Origin: a virus | UHGV virus genome: UHGV-1410056 | Length of the DNA: 40,444 nucleotides | Strand: one strand, 5' to 3' | In this document: positions 1 through 40,444 of the stretch, piece by piece | How the letters are laid out: each line of letters opens with the position of its first letter | How positions within the stretch are numbered: position 1 is the stretch's first letter | The notes under the pieces: generated by a model | Databases searched by the model: none | The model's input: the letters and a program-made list of their open reading frames with translations, nothing else | What the model was told of the DNA's origin: nothing | Translations under genes and position numbers: made by a program

Positions 1-17
1 ATTGAGTGGGAATGATT
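1..17 (+). repeat. attL core direct repeat ATTGAGTGGGAATGATT
   Basis: Exact 17-nt copy of 40428-40444; flanked by inverted repeat GGAATGA (9-15) / TCATTCC (38-44), a possible integrase core-binding pair. Confidence 0.7.
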
Positions 18-5539: not shown

Positions 5540-6124
5540 TTATTGTTTGCTTTTTTCGTTCTGGTTGATGACAAATTCAATGTAACTTTCGATCTTTGCT
5601 TTCTCGGTTTCGGGTAACAATGCGTAGCGTGAGCGGTCATAGTTGATAGTCGCAGGGTCGTGCGGGTGAATCAGTAGTTCATATCCGTGACGCCCGAATG
5701 CGGATGCAACATTCTCCAGGGTGGAAATGGAAACGCTGACCTCATTGTTTAACAGGCGGCTGATTGTCACCTGGGCGACGCCGGATGCGCGGTGAAGTTT
5801 TCCCTGTGTTGAAAGGTCGCGGCTTTCGCTCATCCAGCGTTCCAGGTTGTGAGCCGCCAGCTGACCTATATCGCTCGGGCCGACAGGCTGAAAACCCTCC
5901 TGAGAAAGCGAACGATCAATATCAAGCCAGTTACGGGGTTTATTGGCGGCAGCTTCAATTTTTCGTGCAACCTGGTCGCCGATAACCTTCTTGCCAAGAG
6001 CCCAGCGGTTTACCAGATTTGCCTGAGTTCCAAGTTTTTCTGCCATCCGCGTCTGAACACCATTGAATTCACGGTCGATCAAGTCGTTGAGATTTTGCCT
6101 GCGGACGTCCTGGATACTTTTCAT
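5540..6124 (-). CDS. CI-like phage repressor with two HTH (XRE-type) domains and no S24 peptidase domain
   Basis: 194 aa; two HTH-like segments (TRMAEKLGTQANLVNRW... and ASGVAQVTISRLLNNE...); no Ser/Lys autocleavage module; divergent from Cro-like gene; no SD before ATG (possibly leaderless). Confidence 0.7.
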   Translation of the reverse strand: MKSIQDVRRQNLNDLIDREFNGVQTRMAEKLGTQANLVNRWALGKKVIGDQVARKIEAAANKPRNWLDIDRSLSQEGFQPVGPSDIGQLAAHNLERWMSESRDLSTQGKLHRASGVAQVTISRLLNNEVSVSISTLENVASAFGRHGYELLIHPHDPATINYDRSRYALLPETEKAKIESYIEFVINQNEKSKQ

Positions 6125-6179
6125 TTTCTGGAAAATCGCCTCATATATGAATCAGTAGATGATTCAATTTAAAGCAATA

Positions 6180-6242
6180 TTACCCAACAGGTAAATGCAC
6201 CTCATAGGTAACTATCCTTGATTTTTGTTACCTTATGGGTGA
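6180..6242. promoter_or_regulatory. Putative OR region: three adjacent operators (6180-6194 perfect; 6197-6211 GCACC variant; 6228-6242 GGTGA variant)
   Basis: Lies between divergent repressor and cro-like genes; candidate rightward promoter TTGTTA-17-TATTAT overlaps the third site. Confidence 0.6.
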
Positions 6243-12340: not shown

Positions 12341-12383
12341 GCATGGTACTATTACCACAACGGTAACTATTACCACGGTGGTT

Positions 12384-15117: not shown

Positions 15118-15194
15118 TGGCGTGGCATGCAGGATTCGAACCTGCGACCAACCGCTTAGAAGGCGGTTGCTCTGTCCAACTGAGCTAATGCCAC
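15118..15194 (-). tRNA. tRNA-Arg, anticodon UCU (reads AGA)
   Basis: 77 nt; manual fold gives 7-bp acceptor stem GUGGCAU/AUGCCAC, D-stem GCUC/GAGC, anticodon stem ACCGC/GCGGU with loop CUUCUAA, T-arm GCAGG-UUCGAAU-CCUGC, encoded CCA. Confidence 0.9.
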
Positions 15195-32032: not shown

Positions 32033-32055
32033 CAAAAAAGCCCGCAGCGCGGGCT
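32033..32055 (-). terminator. Rho-independent terminator (minus strand) after the AT-rich two-gene cassette
   Basis: Stem AGCCCGC (32039-32045) / GCGGGCT (32049-32055), A6 on plus (T6 on minus); stem overlaps the stop codon at 32054-32056. Confidence 0.6.
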
Positions 32056-32494
32056 ATTCTTCTTCATCATTAAAAAGCGGATTGTTGTTTCCATCTGATG
32101 AAAGGAAAGGTATGTGTTCTCTTGAAAATCCAACAATGACAATTTCATTATCATTTTTTGCATAATGAATGCATTCATTAGAATGCCTTCCGCCAGGGTT
32201 GAAATTTAAGTTAATGGTATAATTCTTAAATGTGTTTGGATACCATGTTGGCCCACAATGATAATGCCAATAATTCTCTTGCTCATAATTGTCTGAGCCG
32301 GGAATTTTATCATGGTTATCATCAACCCACGAGGGCTTGTTTTTTCCAACAAGCGCCCTTCCATTGGCAACATCCTCTAAAAAACTTTGTATGATTTTTA
32401 TTTCATCATCAGTAAGGAAAGGTCCGTCTACAGCGAAAGGGGTGTTGCTTTCCCCATGTAGAAAACTATTAGATATTCTAATGTTAAACTTCAA
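32054..32494 (-). CDS. AT-rich hypothetical protein (146 aa, TTG start), unknown function; second gene of a two-gene cassette
   Basis: Track ORF 32054..32635 has no internal Met and its N-terminal 47 codons overlap the upstream small gene; TTG at 32494 preceded by AGGAG (6-nt spacer); His/Cys-rich segments (HYHCGPTW, GRHSNECIHY); markedly lower GC than surroundings. Confidence 0.45.
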   Translation of the reverse strand: MKFNIRISNSFLHGESNTPFAVDGPFLTDDEIKIIQSFLEDVANGRALVGKNKPSWVDDNHDKIPGSDNYEQENYWHYHCGPTWYPNTFKNYTINLNFNPGGRHSNECIHYAKNDNEIVIVGFSREHIPFLSSDGNNNPLFNDEEE

Positions 32495-32514
32495 GGAAAA
32501 CTCCTGATGTGCTT

Positions 32515-32682
32515 CTATTTGGAGCGAAATGCCGCCTTGAAGTCGCTGAAAGATGTTCCTGTCTGGTAAACCATATCCTTGTCGCGCTCTTTGCTTGCGC
32601 GGCCAAGCATAACTTTTCCAATGACATCCCAGCATTGCTTGGCTTGTTCATTGTGCTGAGTACGATTTTTCAACGCTGTCAT
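32515..32682 (-). CDS. Small hypothetical protein (55 aa, MTALKNRTQHNEQAKQCWDVIGKVMLGRASKERDKDMVYQTGTSFSDFKAAFRSK); first gene of the two-gene cassette
   Basis: Not in the ORF track; ATG 32682 with AGGAGG 6 nt upstream; operator 32695-32709 immediately upstream. Confidence 0.5.
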   Translation of the reverse strand: MTALKNRTQHNEQAKQCWDVIGKVMLGRASKERDKDMVYQTGTSFSDFKAAFRSK

Positions 32683-32694
32683 ATCGCGCCTCCT

Positions 32695-32709
32695 TTACCT
32701 TTAAGGTAA
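32695..32709. promoter_or_regulatory. Perfect TTACC-tttaa-GGTAA operator upstream of the two-gene cassette
   Basis: Lies 13 bp upstream of the start codon of the 55-aa gene. Confidence 0.5.
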
Positions 32710-32781
32710 TAGTACGCTATTCACCCACAGTCTGCAATCTGTACAGAATTATTTAAAGGCACATCCCTGTGCCACCGCCCG

Positions 32782-33492
32782 TCAGAAGAACCCTGCCTTG
32801 TCGTTGATGTATTCCGCGTGGGTCTGGATATCACGCAGGCATTTGCTCACACCGACGATGTAGCAGAACATGGTGGTCAGCTCCGCCGCCGCGCCCGATA
32901 CGTCGTGCCCGTCGTCCTGTAACTGGTTCAGCAGATTCATCAGCAGTGAGTTCTCCGTCAGGCCGAGAACACCAGACGGCGAATTAATCAGGCTGCGGTA
33001 GCCGGGCTTCAGTGGGGCGCTGTAGGTTTTGTTCTCTATCTTCATCGCCTGCATTACTGCTGACGCCGTGGCGTTGGCTACCTGGTCGGCAACCATCTTT
33101 ATGCGTTCTTCCTGCGGGAGCGAGTTTTTAATGTAGCTTCCGGTGCGGCGGATCTGAGGAAGAACCTCACCCGTAACCCATTTACGAAAGCGGTAGGGGA
33201 TAGTGCCTGGTGTCACTGCGTCGCGGCAGCGGAGGATCAGTGTGTAGAGGCCTGACTCGGAGATGATGTTGATCTCTTTTACTCGGCTGTCAAAAATTGC
33301 ACGATGTTCATGCCCTATGTTGAACATAGACCTTTCATCATCATCCAGTTTTTCAAGTGCTTGGGTGACGTTTTGGATACGCAGCGCACTACAAACGTCT
33401 TGGGCTACAAACCATGGTTGGCCATCGATAATGATGGAACGGATAGGGTTAACAGATTCAAATTTGAAGATGGAAGTTTGAGCATTAGCCAT
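32782..33492 (-). CDS. Antirepressor (Bro-N / AntA-type N-terminal domain plus C-terminal domain)
   Basis: About 236 aa from ATG 33492; N-terminal Bro-N-like region (FKFESVNPIRSIIIDGQPWFVAQDVCSAL); C-terminal 80 aa paralogous to the LexA-box gene at 34641-34898. Confidence 0.7.
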   Translation of the reverse strand: MANAQTSIFKFESVNPIRSIIIDGQPWFVAQDVCSALRIQNVTQALEKLDDDERSMFNIGHEHRAIFDSRVKEINIISESGLYTLILRCRDAVTPGTIPYRFRKWVTGEVLPQIRRTGSYIKNSLPQEERIKMVADQVANATASAVMQAMKIENKTYSAPLKPGYRSLINSPSGVLGLTENSLLMNLLNQLQDDGHDVSGAAAELTTMFCYIVGVSKCLRDIQTHAEYINDKAGFF

Positions 33493-33510
33493 GGTGGTTA
33501 TCTCCACTTA

Positions 33511-33524
33511 GTGATTTTAATCAC
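33511..33524. promoter_or_regulatory. 14-bp palindrome GTGATTTTAATCAC just upstream of the antirepressor start
   Basis: Perfect inverted repeat GTGATT/AATCAC 19 bp upstream of ATG 33492. Confidence 0.35.
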
Positions 33525-33648
33525 CACCGCAACGCCAATTACTGGTGGTGAACTGGACAAGGTTGGCGTACCGGCCTAAGTGGTACCGGCGTCCTTTCGG
33601 ACCCCTGCCCAGCCCACCATAATTCGGATATAGCTGTGCTTAACGCAT

Positions 33649-33782
33649 AAAAAAACCACGTCTGGCGTGGTATGCGCCACTTAGTAACCCGGGACGCCAA
33701 TCCCGGCACTGGATTTTGCCAGTGCCCGATTACTATGGCACAAGAGGAGTGCGATGTAAATTTACCGCAAAGGTAATGATAA
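33649..33782 (-). ncRNA. Candidate small RNA or attenuated leader (about 120 nt) upstream of the antirepressor gene
   Basis: Reverse-strand promoter TTGATT (plus 33800-33805) - 17 bp - TATCAT (plus 33777-33782), overlapped by operator 33762-33776; transcript contains hairpins (GGCACTGG/CCAGTGCC; CCGGGA/TCCCGG) and ends at intrinsic terminator CCACG-N5-CGTGG + T7 (plus 33649-33670); no credible ORF. Confidence 0.4.
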
Positions 33783-33869
33783 ACGCGGAGAAATATCAAA
33801 ATCAACCGTATTTGGTTGGTGGCGTTTAACGCTTGATCACCTGAAAGCAAGATATTACCTTTAAGGTAA
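33762..33869. promoter_or_regulatory. Two perfect TTACC-N5-GGTAA operators (33762-33776, 33855-33869) in the divergent control region between the antirepressor side and the zinc-ribbon gene
   Basis: Second operator sits 20 bp upstream of ATG 33890. Confidence 0.5.
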
Positions 33870-33889
33870 TGTTATTGTGAGGAAAAGCA

Positions 33890-34618
33890 ATGGAAGTTTT
33901 CTGGATAGTTGTTGGTGTGGTTGCGGTGATTATTTACGTTATCAACCAGAACAAGACTAAGATCTCTGATCGTACGGTCGTTAATCATAACAAAACGATA
34001 AAGACCGAAGATGGGGAGATAACGATTAATCGTACACAGGTGATAGAACACACCTCTACTCAGTTTCAAAAAACTGGAGGTAATGCGCCTAATATTTCCG
34101 AACCTCCTGCTTATGATAGTGCGGTAATCCAGACATATTGTAAACAGCAGGAGTTAGCAAAAGAGAGGCAACTGATTCAGCCAAAGCCGTTTACAGCTGA
34201 GCTTCCACCTGGAGTATCAATGCGTCCGGCATATCATGGAAGATTCCCTGGTGATGACATATCGTCTCAGTCATCTAAAAAAGCACCTCAGGCAGTATCA
34301 GAGCCAGCAAGAATACCTTCTGTATCGCCGCCAAAAGAAGAATCAGCTAACAGAGTTTCAAGTGGCCGCAAGCAGTGTTTGCGATGCAGAATAAACCTTC
34401 CATATGACAAATTCCGGAAATCGTCAAAAAATCCAGATGGATTGACTAAGTGGTGTGCAAGGTGTCTCGATGGCCCAAAGAATACACGCCATATGAAGTG
34501 GTGCCCAATTTGTAATGTCCGCAGAAAACGGACCAGCTTTTACCCTAATAATCAAAATGCGGACGGCTTAATGGCATGGTGCAAAACGTGCTGGGACGAG
34601 CACAAAGCGAAACGATAG
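33890..34618 (+). CDS. Membrane-anchored protein with C-terminal tandem CxxC zinc-ribbon-like repeats; unknown function
   Basis: 242 aa; N-terminal TM helix (EVFWIVVGVVAVIIYVI); C-terminal repeats CLRCRINLPYDKFRKSSKNPDGLTKWCARC and CPICNVRRKRTSFYPNNQNADGLMAWCKTC. Confidence 0.55.
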   Translation: MEVFWIVVGVVAVIIYVINQNKTKISDRTVVNHNKTIKTEDGEITINRTQVIEHTSTQFQKTGGNAPNISEPPAYDSAVIQTYCKQQELAKERQLIQPKPFTAELPPGVSMRPAYHGRFPGDDISSQSSKKAPQAVSEPARIPSVSPPKEESANRVSSGRKQCLRCRINLPYDKFRKSSKNPDGLTKWCARCLDGPKNTRHMKWCPICNVRRKRTSFYPNNQNADGLMAWCKTCWDEHKAKR

Positions 34619-34640
34619 GCCGCTCTTGCGGCCTTTAAAT

Positions 34641-34898
34641 TTACCGGGTTTGTTTTCGTAATTGTTCGGCACAATAGTCGAGATGTGTTTGCAGATCCTG
34701 CATAGACATCTGTGAGCTGGTGACGTAGTTAATCAGTGCAGTCAGTTCGGCAAGTGGGCCATCGACATTAAATCCATCCTTATCGAGATCCCGGAGTAAT
34801 TTCATCAAGTGCGATCCCTCCACCAGTGACCTGACGCCTCCCGGCGTGTGAATCCTTTCGGTAAATCCGTCTTCCAGTGGATAGTGATACTGCTGCAT
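34641..34898 (-). CDS. Small LexA-controlled protein (85 aa) homologous to the antirepressor C-terminal domain; candidate SOS-induced antirepressor
   Basis: Start ATG 34898 (GGAGAAG SD) within track ORF 34641..34916; about 40% identity by eye to the C-terminus of the Bro-N antirepressor (shared GV..L.E.S.LM.LL..L..DG..V.G...ELT ... D.QTH); LexA box immediately upstream. Confidence 0.6.
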   Translation of the reverse strand: MQQYHYPLEDGFTERIHTPGGVRSLVEGSHLMKLLRDLDKDGFNVDGPLAELTALINYVTSSQMSMQDLQTHLDYCAEQLRKQTR

Positions 34899-34919
34899 CT
34901 TATCTTCTCCATGCAATAA

Positions 34920-34935
34920 CTGTATATTTATACAG
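34920..34935. promoter_or_regulatory. LexA (SOS) box CTGTATATTTATACAG
   Basis: Perfect CTGT-N8-ACAG with AT-rich spacer (extended TAACTGTATATTTATACAGTAT, 34917-34938), 4 bp from the first ATG of the minus-strand gene. Confidence 0.75.
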
Positions 34936-34974
34936 TATCAAATAATTTGTTTGCTATCCAGCACGTTTTGCAAA

Positions 34975-34989
34975 TTACCTGAAAGGTAA
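34975..34989. promoter_or_regulatory. Perfect TTACC-tgaaa-GGTAA operator between the LexA-controlled gene and the tailspike gene
   Basis: Same 15-bp sequence as the site at 15517-15531. Confidence 0.5.
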
Positions 34990-35093
34990 TATCTATTCGT
35001 ATTTACAGCCTTTCTATCCATATGTGGTTTTCCAGGTAATAGAATAACCAGATATGCGGCGCAACGGGTGCTGCGACTATCTGGAGATTTAAC

Positions 35094-38000
35094 ATGACGG
35101 TCTCAACCGAAGTTGACCACAACGAATACACCGGTAACGGCGTTACGACATCGTTTCCGTATACTTTTCGAATTTTCAGAAAATCAGACCTGGTTGTTCA
35201 GGTGTCTGACCTGAACGGAAACGTAACAGAATTGGTTCTGGATACCGGTTATACGGTAACTGGGGCGGGCACTTATAGTGGCGGTTCTGTGGTTCTTCCG
35301 TCTCCGCTTGCTACTGGATGGCGAATTACGATAGATCGTGTGCTTGATGTAGTGCAGGAGACAGACCTTCGCAATCAGGGAAAATTTTTCCCCGAAGTGC
35401 ATGAAGATGCCTTTGACTACCTGACGATGCTGATCCAGCAATGTTTTGGGTGGTTCAGACGTGCATTGATGAAACCATCTTTGCTTGCAAAATATTACGA
35501 TGCAAAGCAAAACAAAATTTCTAACCTTGCAGATCCATCATTTGAGCAGGACGCTGTAAATAATCGCTCAATGCGTAATTATGTCGATGCTGCAATCGCC
35601 GGGGTTGTTGGTGGTTTTGGTTGGTTTATTCAGTATGGTTCTGGGGCTGTGTACCGAACGTTCCAGGATAAAATGCGTGATGCTATTAGCCCCAAAGATT
35701 TTGGAGCTGTTGGTGATGGTATAAATGACGATTCCACTGCAATAAGCGCGTGCCTTGAAGCCTCATCTCCAGGTTATAAAATTGACGGATTAGGGCTTAC
35801 TTTTAAAGTATCAACTCTTCCGGATGTCAGTCGATTTAAAAATGCTCGTTTTTTATTTGAGAGAATACCGGGCCAGCCTCTTTTTTATGCTTCTGAAGAT
35901 TTTATCCAGGGAGAGTTATTTAAAATTACAGATACACCGTGGTACAACGCCTGGACGCAGGATAAAACGTTTGTATATGACAATGTCATCTATGCGCCTT
36001 TTATGGCTGGAGACCGCCATGGTGTAAATAACCTCCATGTTGCATGGGTTCGCTCAGGAGATGACGGGAAGACCTGGACAACGCCGGAATGGCTTACAGA
36101 TTTACATGAAAACTATCCCACAGTTAACTATCACTGCATGAGTATGGGGGTTGTCAGAAATCGCCTTTTTGCTGTAATTGAGACGCGGACCGTGAGCGGA
36201 AATAAACTGCAGGTTGCAGAGTTGTGGGATCGCCCAATGAGTCGCAGCCTTCGCGCTTATGGTGGTATAACGAAAGCAGCAAATCAGCAAGTCGCTTATA
36301 TTCGCATTACTGATCACGGATTATTTGCTGGTGATTTTGTCAACTTCTCAAACTCTGGTGTTACAGGTGTTACCGGGAATATGACGGTGACTACTGTTAT
36401 TGATAAAAATACTTTTACAGTTACGACGCAAAATACCCAGGATGTGGATCAGAATAACGAGGGTAGATACTGGAGTTTTGGTACATCATTTCACTCGTCA
36501 CCATGGAGAAAAACCAGTCTTGGAACTATTCCTTCTTTTGTTGACGGAAGCACTCCTGTTACTGAGATTCACAGTTTTGCGACGATTAGCGATAACAGTT
36601 TTGCTGTTGGCTACCATAATGGTGATATTGGTCCACGCGAGCTTGGGATACTCTATTTCTCTGATGCTTTCGGTTCTCCTGGTAGCTTTGTTCGCAGACG
36701 CATACCTGCAGAATATGAGGCGAATGCATCTGAGCCATGTGTAAAATATTATGATGGCATTCTGTATCTGACGACCAGGGGGACATTAAGTACTCAACCC
36801 GGTAGTTCATTGCACAGAAGCTCTGATTTAGGTACATCATGGAATTCTCTTCGCTTCCCAAATAATGTTCATCACTCAAACCTTCCTTTTGCCAAAGTTG
36901 GCGATGAGCTGATTATTTTTGGCAGTGAGCGCGCATTTGGTGAGTGGGAAGGAGGAGAACCTGATAACCGTTATGCAGGAAATTATCCAAGAACATTTAT
37001 GACCAGAGTTAACGTCAATGAGTGGAGTCTGGATAATGTAGAGTGGGTTAATGTTACTGATCAGATTTATCAGGGCGGAATAGTTAACTCTGCAGTTGGT
37101 GTTGGTTCAGTTTGTATCAAAGACAACTGGCTGTACTACATTTTCGGTGGGGAAGACTTTCTAAACCCATGGAGCATAGGGGATAACAACAGAAAATATC
37201 CTTATGTTCACGATGGTCACCCGGCTGATTTGTATTGTTTCAGGGTGAAAATTAAACAGGAAGAATTTGTTTCAAGGGATTTTGTCTACGGAGCCACTCC
37301 TAACAGAACGCTTCCTACTTTTATGTCGACGTCAGGCGTGAGGACGGTTCCTGTACCCGTTGATTTCGCAGATGATGTTGCCGTCCAGTCACTGACTGTC
37401 CATGCAGGTACATCAGGACAAGTTCGCGCGGAAGTCAAACTTGAGGGTAATTACGCCATTATTGCGAAGAAAGTACCGTCTGATGATGTTACCGCTCAGA
37501 GATTAATCGTTAGCGGCGGTGAAACAACGTCTTCAGCAGATGGTGCAATGATAACGTTGCATGGTTCCGGAAGCAGTACTCCACGTCGCGCGGTATATAA
37601 CGCACTCGAACATCTTTTTGAGAACGGAGATGTTAAACCTTATCTTGATAATGTAAATGCTCTTGGTGGTCCGGGAAACAGGTTCTCGACAGTTTATCTT
37701 GGCTCCAATCCTGTGGTTACCAGTGACGGAACATTAAAGACAGAGCCGGTCTCTCCTGACGAAGCATTGCTGGATGCCTGGGGTGACGTCAGGTATATCG
37801 CTTATAAATGGCTGAACGCTGTCGCTATAAAGGGGGAAGAAGGGGCGAGGATACATCATGGTGTAATCGCGCAGCAACTTCGTGATGTTCTTATTTCTCA
37901 CGGACTCATGGAAGAAGAAAGCACAACATGCCGCTATGCCTTTCTTTGCTATGACGATTATCCCGCAGTATATGATGACGTCATTACTGGCCAAAGGGAA

Positions 38001-38213
38001 ATGCCGCTGACTGATAATGACGGGAGCATCATTGTTGATGAGGATGATAATCCAGTGATGGTAATGGAAGACATCATTGAGCGCGTTGAAATAACGCCAG
38101 CAGGATCTAGATGGGGGGTCAGACCTGATCTCTTATTCTATATCGAGGCAGCATGGCAGCGCAGAGAAATGGATAAGATAAAAGAGCGGATTCAGTCTCT
38201 GGAAGAACGTTAA
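35094..38213 (+). CDS. Tailspike: endo-N-acetylneuraminidase (endosialidase) with C-terminal intramolecular chaperone domain
   Basis: 1039 aa; T7 gp17-like N-terminal head-binding region; two sialidase Asp-boxes (SGDDGKTW, SSDLGTSW); long collinear match to K1F-type endosialidase catalytic region as I recall it; C-terminal about 162 aa resemble the autocleaving chaperone domain with predicted cleavage at Ser877/Asp878 (37722-37727). Confidence 0.8.
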   Translation: MTVSTEVDHNEYTGNGVTTSFPYTFRIFRKSDLVVQVSDLNGNVTELVLDTGYTVTGAGTYSGGSVVLPSPLATGWRITIDRVLDVVQETDLRNQGKFFPEVHEDAFDYLTMLIQQCFGWFRRALMKPSLLAKYYDAKQNKISNLADPSFEQDAVNNRSMRNYVDAAIAGVVGGFGWFIQYGSGAVYRTFQDKMRDAISPKDFGAVGDGINDDSTAISACLEASSPGYKIDGLGLTFKVSTLPDVSRFKNARFLFERIPGQPLFYASEDFIQGELFKITDTPWYNAWTQDKTFVYDNVIYAPFMAGDRHGVNNLHVAWVRSGDDGKTWTTPEWLTDLHENYPTVNYHCMSMGVVRNRLFAVIETRTVSGNKLQVAELWDRPMSRSLRAYGGITKAANQQVAYIRITDHGLFAGDFVNFSNSGVTGVTGNMTVTTVIDKNTFTVTTQNTQDVDQNNEGRYWSFGTSFHSSPWRKTSLGTIPSFVDGSTPVTEIHSFATISDNSFAVGYHNGDIGPRELGILYFSDAFGSPGSFVRRRIPAEYEANASEPCVKYYDGILYLTTRGTLSTQPGSSLHRSSDLGTSWNSLRFPNNVHHSNLPFAKVGDELIIFGSERAFGEWEGGEPDNRYAGNYPRTFMTRVNVNEWSLDNVEWVNVTDQIYQGGIVNSAVGVGSVCIKDNWLYYIFGGEDFLNPWSIGDNNRKYPYVHDGHPADLYCFRVKIKQEEFVSRDFVYGATPNRTLPTFMSTSGVRTVPVPVDFADDVAVQSLTVHAGTSGQVRAEVKLEGNYAIIAKKVPSDDVTAQRLIVSGGETTSSADGAMITLHGSGSSTPRRAVYNALEHLFENGDVKPYLDNVNALGGPGNRFSTVYLGSNPVVTSDGTLKTEPVSPDEALLDAWGDVRYIAYKWLNAVAIKGEEGARIHHGVIAQQLRDVLISHGLMEEESTTCRYAFLCYDDYPAVYDDVITGQREMPLTDNDGSIIVDEDDNPVMVMEDIIERVEITPAGSRWGVRPDLLFYIEAAWQRREMDKIKERIQSLEER

Positions 38214-40427: not shown

Positions 40428-40444
40428 ATTGAGTGGGAATGATT
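40428..40444 (+). repeat. attR core direct repeat ATTGAGTGGGAATGATT
   Basis: Exact copy of 1-17; adjacent inverted repeat CACTCAATT (40399-40407) / AATTGAGTG (40427-40435). Confidence 0.7.

Follow-up and report, generated by a model that had tools for sequence, protein, structure and literature searches.

A putative LexA-controlled antirepressor switch of the SPC32H type in an epsilon15-like prophage of Escherichia coli

The prophage, its small ant gene and its repressor

The window, by which we mean the whole stretch of 40,444 bp that was analysed, is a complete prophage of the phiV10/epsilon15 type. A 17-bp core, ATTGAGTGGGAATGATT, lies at positions 1-17 and is repeated at 40428-40444, and the same attachment core has been reported for phiV10, epsilon15 and ZX5 (PMC9782041). 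The DNA around the locus described here was 92-98% identical to that of the Escherichia phages HEMP4, TL-2011b, phiv142-3, ZX5 and phiV10, all of which belong to the genus Uetakevirus (epsilon15-like podophages). The genes and sites that frame the locus are:

208-1458: integrase gene
34641-34898, minus strand: small ant, an 85-aa antirepressor of the SPC32H type, assigned by homology to SPC32H Ant; ATG at 34898, stop codon at 34641-34643
34907-34910, minus strand: Shine-Dalgarno sequence GGAG of small ant, 8 nt before the ATG and invariant in 10 aligned phage loci
35094-38213: gene for the tailspike, an endosialidase; ATG at 35094, divergent from small ant

The small ant gene stands alone between the injection-protein genes, which it follows, and the divergent tailspike gene, and it is convergent with a gene for a 242-aa protein. 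The order in which ant lies downstream of the injection-protein genes and diverges from the tailspike gene is shared by the window, SPC32H, epsilon15 and phiV10. The conserved GGAG 8 nt upstream, together with the alignment to homologues, indicates that the open reading frame and its start are real. The prophage in the window is K1-specific.

The small gene encodes a close relative of a crystallised antirepressor. Its product was 88% identical over 83 aa (E 4e-47) to chain E of PDB entry 5D50 ('Anti-repressor protein', 86 aa), the one PDB entry that it matched, and by tblastn it was 88% identical to the product of the gene annotated as ant in Salmonella phage SPC32H (KC911856). It also matched phrog_450, and Pfam and NCBIfam searches found no family for it, DinI, ANT and KilA-C included. 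In a tblastn search of 50,697 phage records it matched 35, all of the Uetakevirus type; the copy in ZX5 was identical to that of the window. The ant unit was present in 531 of 5,426 complete E. coli genomes (~10%), and among the matches listed, 12 of 534 rows, the RefSeq label of ant was 'hypothetical protein' in all 12.

The window also encodes the presumed target of Ant. The repressor gene and the palindromes near it and near small ant are:

5540-6124, minus strand: rep, a 194-aa non-cleavable repressor and presumed Ant target, with a full-length match to chain A of 5D50
5404 and 5467: copies of the palindrome beside rep
6179-6195: palindrome copy ATTACCCAACAGGTAAA, with 1 mismatch, in the rep-cro intergenic region
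34974-34990: 17-bp palindrome ATTACCTGAAAGGTAAT, a putative Rep operator between ant and the tailspike gene, conserved in 10 of 10 loci

Residues 1-190 of Rep matched chain A of 5D50, 'Repressor', with an E value of 3.5e-42, and a C-terminal fragment, 5D4Z, was matched too, so that both partners of the crystallised complex have a homologue in the window. By tblastn, the crystallised proteins are the Ant and Rep of SPC32H (Kim & Ryu 2013, J Virol 87:11775; Kim et al. 2016 PNAS; PDB 5D50 and 5D4Z). Pfam placed an HTH_3 domain at residues 106-147 of Rep and a weak second HTH-like match at 21-61 and found no S24 peptidase domain, in agreement with a preliminary description of this DNA, made from its letters, that had given the repressor two HTH domains and no peptidase domain. 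Rep was 99.5% identical to the Rep of phiV10 and ZX5. Because it was merely 43% identical to SPC32H Rep (52% in the N-terminal half and 41% in the C-terminal, Ant-binding half), the binding of Ant to the window's Rep is extrapolated from SPC32H. The small Ant was 84-88% conserved between these branches. Ant and Rep were found in largely overlapping sets of phage records (35 and 37, respectively).

The palindrome ATTACC-N5-GGTAAT is a putative operator of Rep. Fifteen copies with ≤2 mismatches were present in the window (1.1 expected), most of them intergenic, and the homologous epsilon15 sites are annotated in GenBank as 'protein_bind: repressor, lysogeny', which is an in-silico annotation.

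The LexA box and the candidate ant promoter

Two overlapping features lie immediately upstream of small ant:

34918-34937: LexA (SOS) box AACTGTATATTTATACAGTA, 18 of 20 positions matching the consensus TACTGTATATATATACAGTA
34932-34960, minus strand: candidate ant promoter with -35 TGGATA (34960-34955), a 17-nt spacer and -10 TACTGT (34937-34932), placed from invariant columns and conserved geometry

The LexA box upstream of ant is of high quality and is unique in the window. The plus strand from 34917 to 34938 reads TAACTGTATATTTATACAGTAT. A search of the window that allowed ≤3 mismatches returned 34918-34937 as its sole match, and there were no matches in 100 shuffles. The less demanding pattern CTGT-N8-ACAG occurred three times in the window (0.51 expected), and the other two sites had G+C-rich spacers. 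We also scored the box with an approximate weight matrix derived from 20 SOS boxes of E. coli; it reached 27.4 bits, higher than all 20 training sites (maximum of 26.6 bits), compared with 11.3 bits for the next best site in the window and 19.4 bits for the best site in 200 shuffles. We considered and rejected further LexA sites, for example at the large antirepressor gene described below or at rep; the other matches to CTGT-N8-ACAG or CTG-N10-CAG were G+C-rich and scored ≤11.3 bits. The preliminary description had put a near-consensus SOS box 4 bp from the first ATG of the small gene. The box held up, and so did its standing when scored with a LexA weight matrix as that description had proposed, but the distance did not: the nearby ATG at 34912-34910, to which the 4 bp refer, is in another reading frame, and the true start codon of ant is 19 nt from the box.

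The box is conserved across phages of several genera of host. The stretch between ant and the tailspike gene was aligned for ten loci, those of the window, phiV10, SPC32H, SPC32N, epsilon15, Tyrion, BUCT554, BUCT711, Kp4865-1 and ST512phi13.3. The SOS box, the GGAG and the ATG of ant were kept in these nine other Uetakevirus-type loci, which come from phages of Escherichia, Salmonella, Enterobacter and Klebsiella, and a small ant with its box was present in every member examined. In the Klebsiella relatives (three phages), ATG replaces CTG in the distal half-site and the score is 17-18 bits, so that in this branch LexA may repress ant less strongly or no longer.

A natural variant of the box was found in SPC32N. 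Across the 5.2-kb locus SPC32H and SPC32N differ at just 2 nt, and one of the two differences is a change of CAG to AAG in the box that lowers its score from 25.1 to 18.5 bits. Kim & Ryu reportedly described, in 2013, SPC32N as a phage two nucleotides away from SPC32H that has a point mutation in the LexA site and makes Ant constitutively. The change of CAG to AAG agrees with this phenotype.

The likely promoter of ant has its -10 inside the LexA box. In the arrangement TGGATA-17-TACTGT, which matches the consensus at 7 of 12 positions, the candidate -10 TACTGT overlaps the left arm of the box, and the geometry, TGGAxA 17 nt upstream of TACTGT (TATATG in Klebsiella), was kept in 10 of 10 loci. 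No sigma-70 site came up at the box in a scan for consensus promoters. Another arrangement picked by eye, TTGATA-17-TATTGC, was rejected as the ant promoter, since it would start transcription inside the Shine-Dalgarno sequence.

A second antirepressor with the same domain

The window encodes a second, larger antirepressor that is preceded by genes for two small RNAs. The features of this unit are:

32782-33492, minus strand: large antirepressor, 236 aa, with a Bro-N head (residues ~17-112) and an Ant-like C-terminal domain (residues ~150-236)
33504-33538, minus strand: C4 targets a2 (33538-33532, TTGGCGT) and b2 (33511-33504, CTAAGTGG), identified by exact complementarity to C4
33541-33624, minus strand: C4 antisense RNA gene (Rfam RF01695, 66 bits against a gathering score of 45)
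33649-33725, minus strand: isrK-like sRNA or leader with terminator (Rfam RF01394, 67.7 bits against 50)
33671-33655: terminator-like hairpin of the isrK-like RNA
33700-33694 and 33684-33677, minus strand: C4 targets a1 and b1, respectively, inside the isrK-like RNA, identified by complementarity to C4
33732-33870, minus strand: promoter-like sites of the isrK-C4-ant unit, TTGATT-18-TATCAT (33805-33776) and TTTACA-17-CATAGT (33760-33732)
33761-33777 and 33854-33870: copies of the ATTACC-N5-GGTAAT palindrome at these promoter-like sites

The C-terminal domain of the large antirepressor is a paralogue of the small Ant. By BLASTP the two proteins shared 30 of 74 residues (41%, E 1e-14), close to the value of about 40% that had been estimated by eye, and residues 160-236 of the large protein matched chain E of 5D50 (5D50_E, E 2.4e-12). 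Both proteins matched phrog_450, phrog_15539 and phrog_1760. The head of the large protein matched Pfam Bro-N (PF02498, E 1e-19, residues 22-117 in the 241-aa reading); Bro-N was the only match, and the ANT and KilA-C profiles, which the preliminary description had suggested for both proteins, matched neither. When nine small Ants and four large C-terminal domains were aligned, 16 columns were invariant. A tblastn search found no third Ant-like copy in the window.

The split between the small and the large forms appears to be old. Small and large Ant were 36-43% identical in every phage examined, which indicates an old split and rules out a recent duplication of the domain. The motif DGHDVSGAAAE was common to the Klebsiella small Ants and all of the large copies, a sharing that hints at exchange between the two lineages.

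The Ant-like domain was rare among known proteins. When 1.84 billion representative proteins were searched with a profile of it, just 62 clusters came up; among them are proteins of 80-95 aa in which the domain stands alone and others that carry it at the C-terminus, behind a Bro-N, AntA, Phage_pRha or ORF6N head. On these matches the Ant-like domain is a small, narrowly distributed module that occurs alone or behind classic antirepressor heads. Iyer, Koonin and Aravind reportedly described, in 2002, domain shuffling in the modular antirepressor proteins with Bro-N, KilA-N, Rha and ORF6N domains. The module found here resembles theirs in its position behind several kinds of head, and differs in that it has no Pfam family, is unusually also free-standing and, in SPC32H, suffices alone as an inducer. 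The small gene had been read as a stand-alone copy of one domain of the larger protein, with a hint at how such antirepressors arise. The paralogy was borne out; as to the direction, the two are old paralogues and the domain is found both free-standing and fused to four heads, so which form came first cannot be said.

The large antirepressor was present in some of the related phages. It was 81% identical overall to ORF4 of ZX5, labelled 'anti-repressor', with 2 substitutions after residue 69. Full-length homologues were found in Tyrion, Kp4865-1, ST512phi13.3 and ZX5, the phiV10 copy was truncated (194 aa), and no copy was found in SPC32H, epsilon15, BUCT554 or BUCT711. The window scans found no LexA box near the large gene, which argues that it has no direct SOS input.

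The large gene appears to be under antisense-RNA control of the kind known from P1. The predicted loop sequences of C4 are ACGCCAA and CCACTTAG, and the targets in both pairs, a1/b1 and a2/b2, are perfectly complementary over 7-8 nt to the same C4 positions (56-62 and 42-49). Target b2 overlaps the Shine-Dalgarno sequence GGAG (33505-33502) of the large ant. A match to the c4-a1b1 element (RF03163) at 33686-33738 fell just short of its gathering score (44.1 against 46.7 bits). Of the two palindromes at the promoter-like sites, the one at 33761-33777 shares 2 bp with the first -10 of the unit and abuts the second -35; if the palindrome is a Rep operator, then Rep itself would repress the large ant and may influence the small ant too. 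The C4 cassette also precedes the large ant in phiV10, Tyrion, Kp4865-1, ST512phi13.3 and ZX5. In P1 immI, the order is c4 antisense RNA, icd and ant, and C4 targets gate the antirepressor. The unit in the window, for the large ant only, is like P1/P7 immI and the isrK-orf45-anrP genes of Gifsy-1 (PMC4825925) in having isrK-like and C4 RNAs upstream, duplicated a and b targets complementary to C4 with the downstream pair over the ribosome-binding site, and repressor-operator-like sites at the promoters. It differs from P1 immI in that the target appears to be the Shine-Dalgarno sequence of the large ant itself, the effector is SPC32H-Ant-like, and the repressor is Rep rather than P1 C1. The immI-like control of the large ant is new at the level of annotation.

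The proposed switch, its alternatives and its wider meaning

Based on the comparisons above, the gene at 34641-34898 is very probably the Ant of a phiV10/epsilon15-like (Uetakevirus) prophage that works as in SPC32H; by every sequence criterion that we applied, the locus is a member of the SPC32H Ant/Rep family. In a lysogen, host LexA bound to the box at 34918-34937, over the likely -10, would keep ant silent, and Rep, which has no autocleavage domain, would shut the lytic promoters through the dispersed ATTACC-N5-GGTAAT operators. Upon DNA damage, RecA would become active, LexA would cleave itself and ant would be transcribed, and the 85-aa Ant would then bind Rep and the prophage would be induced. 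The large Ant would most likely target the same Rep, as a second input that is Rep-sensitive and RNA-gated.

The proposed switch follows that of SPC32H. Kim & Ryu reportedly found in 2013 that SPC32H Rep stays uncleaved during SOS induction, that the small Ant inactivates Rep, and that the ant promoter overlaps the LexA site. SPC32H and the window are alike in their orthologous Ant (88%), in having Rep proteins that are homologous over their full length, in the LexA box directly upstream of ant, in the genomic slot that ant occupies, with the injection-protein genes on one side and the divergent tailspike gene on the other, and in genus (Uetakevirus). They differ in that the host of the window's prophage is E. 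coli, that Rep is 43% identical, and that the window has both the isrK/C4-controlled antirepressor, in which Bro-N is fused to the Ant-like domain, and the 242-aa insert gene, neither of which is present in SPC32H. Reviews describe how LexA cleavage frees Ant, which inhibits the repressor (PMC7380047, citing Kim & Ryu 2013), and how an SPC32H Ant tetramer binds two Rep dimers and breaks up the DNA-binding Rep tetramer (PMC9638917). ZX5, with its identical small Ant and 99.5% identical Rep, is inducible with mitomycin C (PMC9782041), which lends the proposed switch indirect support.

Induction by a LexA-derepressed antirepressor, which the preliminary description took to be the natural reading, is thus supported by the 88%-identical Ant and the homologous Rep of SPC32H, and SPC32H Ant is the right precedent rather than the two that were named there. 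GfoA, GftA and GfhA of Gifsy-1/-2/-3 are alike in being small, LexA-controlled antirepressors that are encoded outside the immunity region and that bind and inactivate a non-cleavable repressor (PMC3121763). However, the Gifsy genes lie in a dinI-ant-irsA operon (PMC3121763), whereas the window's ant is alone and without a dinI homologue, and the repressors belong to different families (GfoR/DicA-like in Gifsy and SPC32H Rep-like in the window). In phage 186, similarly, a LexA-repressed promoter, p95, drives an antirepressor that blocks DNA binding by CI (186 annotation), but that protein, Tum, has 146 aa and a DinI-like half; its BLASTP similarity to the small Ant was not significant (E 0.061), the small Ant has no DinI match in Pfam, and a relationship to Tum was rejected.

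The large Bro-N protein could instead be the real inducer in the E. coli branch, with the small gene being redundant, a modulator, or mainly a factor that acts in trans on other resident prophages; we consider this improbable. In ZX5, overexpression of ORF4, the Bro-N protein, lowered the prophage titre from 1e9 to 1e6, ~1000-fold (PMC9782041). That paper, the one experimental study of a phage with exactly this small Ant and a near-identical Rep, dealt with the large antirepressor alone and mentions neither LexA nor the small gene (PMC9782041). Among the antirepressors of phages with this Rep, ORF4 alone has been tested, and its overexpression lowered lysogeny. It carries the same Ant-like domain as the small Ant, and the conservation of Ant (84-88%) against that of Rep (43%) between the branches would fit a broadly acting factor, as in the cross-talk among Gifsy phages (PMC3121763). 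Against this reading, the large gene has no LexA box nearby and so no direct SOS input, and it is missing from SPC32H, epsilon15, BUCT554 and BUCT711 and truncated in phiV10, whereas the small ant and its box are present in every member.

We regard it as very unlikely that the small Ant has changed partner, such that with the divergence of Rep it would no longer bind the phage repressor and would serve some other role linked to the SOS response. The C-terminal domain of Rep, at 41% identity to that of SPC32H, leaves room for such a change, and no curated family defines the function of the small Ant. However, the small Ant is 88% identical to a protein that was crystallised in complex with Rep, it occurs with Rep homologues in largely the same records, its position and box are conserved, and its domain has a paralogue in a protein with antirepressor activity in a phage of the same immunity type. 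It is scarcely credible that the resemblance to a LexA site arose by chance in A+T-rich DNA, or that the palindrome controls the divergent tailspike gene instead of ant: the intergenic region is indeed shared with the tailspike gene (ATG at 35094) and a simple scan gave no clear promoter, but the shuffles contained no comparable site, the score exceeds those of known SOS boxes, the box is 19 nt from the ATG of ant versus 156 nt from that of the tailspike gene, and it is conserved across genera and carries the point mutation that separates SPC32N from SPC32H.

The LexA-Ant-Rep switch in the window is not a discovery, since its mechanism was worked out in publications of 2013-2016 on a phage of the same genus whose Ant is an 88%-identical orthologue. 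The locus is the E. coli version of a characterised switch of epsilon15-like prophages and is largely ordinary. Three aspects are mildly new: the effector end of modular antirepressors has a homologue in the free-standing Ant; one prophage has both forms of Ant, one under LexA and the other under C4-RNA control; and the ant gene is unannotated in E. coli genomes although the ant unit is in ~10% of the complete ones.

A wider reading is possible, and we offer it tentatively. One repressor-binding module may serve twice in this prophage, each time with a sensor of its own: as a free-standing protein it would answer to LexA, and in the fusion to Bro-N to C4/isrK and Rep operators. Both forms would converge on one non-cleavable Rep as a damage trigger and a Rep-sensitive latch; the same module may be the effector of Bro-N, AntA, Rha and ORF6N antirepressors and may cross-induce heteroimmune relatives. 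If so, the second antirepressor would be derepressed once Rep is lost, and induction would then reinforce itself; an uncatalogued Ant-like domain would be the effector part of 'antirepressors' with Bro-N, AntA, Rha and ORF6N heads, and the pairing of a conserved Ant (84-88%) with a fast-diverging Rep (43%) would allow cross-induction of heteroimmune relatives.

The analysis opens no new mechanism, and its main value is practical. With two antirepressors that share one effector domain and are placed under LexA and antisense-RNA controls, the prophage is a modest example of how modular antirepressors are built. Transfer of the annotation from SPC32H explains how common E. coli prophages, including O157, O103 and ST131 relatives, would sense DNA damage.

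Prophage boundaries and the dispersed palindrome

The ends of the window define a single prophage. Identical copies of the 17-bp direct repeat ATTGAGTGGGAATGATT lie at window positions 1-17 and 40428-40444, and phiV10, epsilon15 and ZX5 have this same sequence as their reported att core, at the 3' end of guaA (PMC9782041). We conclude that the window is exactly one prophage, attL to attR.

A 17-bp palindrome, ATTACC-N5-GGTAAT, is a putative operator for Rep, the non-cleavable phage repressor. It occurs at 15 sites in the window, a 13-fold over-representation, and the sites include those starting at 150, 5404, 5467, 6179, 8466, 8528, 12351, 12369, 15516, 32694, 33761, 33854 and 34974. The sites are mostly intergenic; those at 12351 and 12369 fall within the listed ORF for the terminase small subunit. 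The epsilon15 record annotates the same palindrome as a repressor site, and it is unchanged between the epsilon15 and phiV10 branches, although the N-terminal domain of Rep is only 52% identical between them. These scattered putative operators recall P1 C1, which has many dispersed operators.

Genes around the two antirepressors

The region of the small antirepressor (ant) gene and the large antirepressor gene contains two further ORFs.

33890-34618, plus strand: 242-aa gene (phrog_6762), inserted between small ant and the isrK-C4-ant cassette
32054-32635, minus strand: 193-aa ORF (phrog_5954), downstream of large ant

The 242-aa gene is convergent with small ant and has a terminator-like hairpin at its end (34617-34634). 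Its product has a hydrophobic N-terminal segment and, at the C-terminus, repeated CxxC zinc-ribbon-like motifs with weak matches to Stc1, endonuclease VII and Lar-like proteins. phiV10 and ZX5 lack this gene, and in them a single strand carries small ant, the isrK and C4 RNAs and large ant. The 193-aa ORF had no Pfam or NCBIfam match, and is preceded by a copy of the palindrome (32694-32710).

The type phage, phiV10, may have an inactive large antirepressor. Its gene (L003, 3071-3750) encodes a truncated protein of 194 aa that has lost most of the Ant-like domain, and a 29-aa ORF comes after it.

Variation and distribution of the small antirepressor locus

The SOS box upstream of ant scores 17-18 bits with the LexA weight matrix in the three Klebsiella phages BUCT711, Kp4865-1 and ST512phi13.3, versus 22-27 in the others; in these three (about 2457-2476 of L007-L009), one half-site is ATG rather than CTG. 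The motif DGHDVSGAAAE is found in the Klebsiella small Ants and in all large antirepressors, but not in other small Ants.

SPC32H and SPC32N (L001 and L002) have, besides the SOS-box mutation, a second difference, G>A at position 2284, which falls in the tailspike gene at roughly its fifth codon, 187 nt from the first. Both differences are confined to this single ant-tailspike locus.

The stretch comprising ant and its control region (window 34641-35093) was present in 531 of 5,426 complete E. coli RefSeq genomes, mostly at 95-99% identity. Among the matches listed, all 11 rows covering the gene call it 'hypothetical protein'.

Late region and tailspike

15118-15194, minus strand: tRNA-Arg (anticodon TCT), between the terminase and portal genes
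35094-38213, plus strand: tailspike gene, encoding an endosialidase

The tRNA gene sits inside a late region that is otherwise plus-strand. The tailspike has End_N_terminal, beta-propeller, beta-barrel, tail-spike and Peptidase_S74 chaperone domains (E down to 1e-233), and the tailspikes of relatives are quite unlike this endosialidase. The window prophage is an epsilon15-like phage with K1-capsule specificity.
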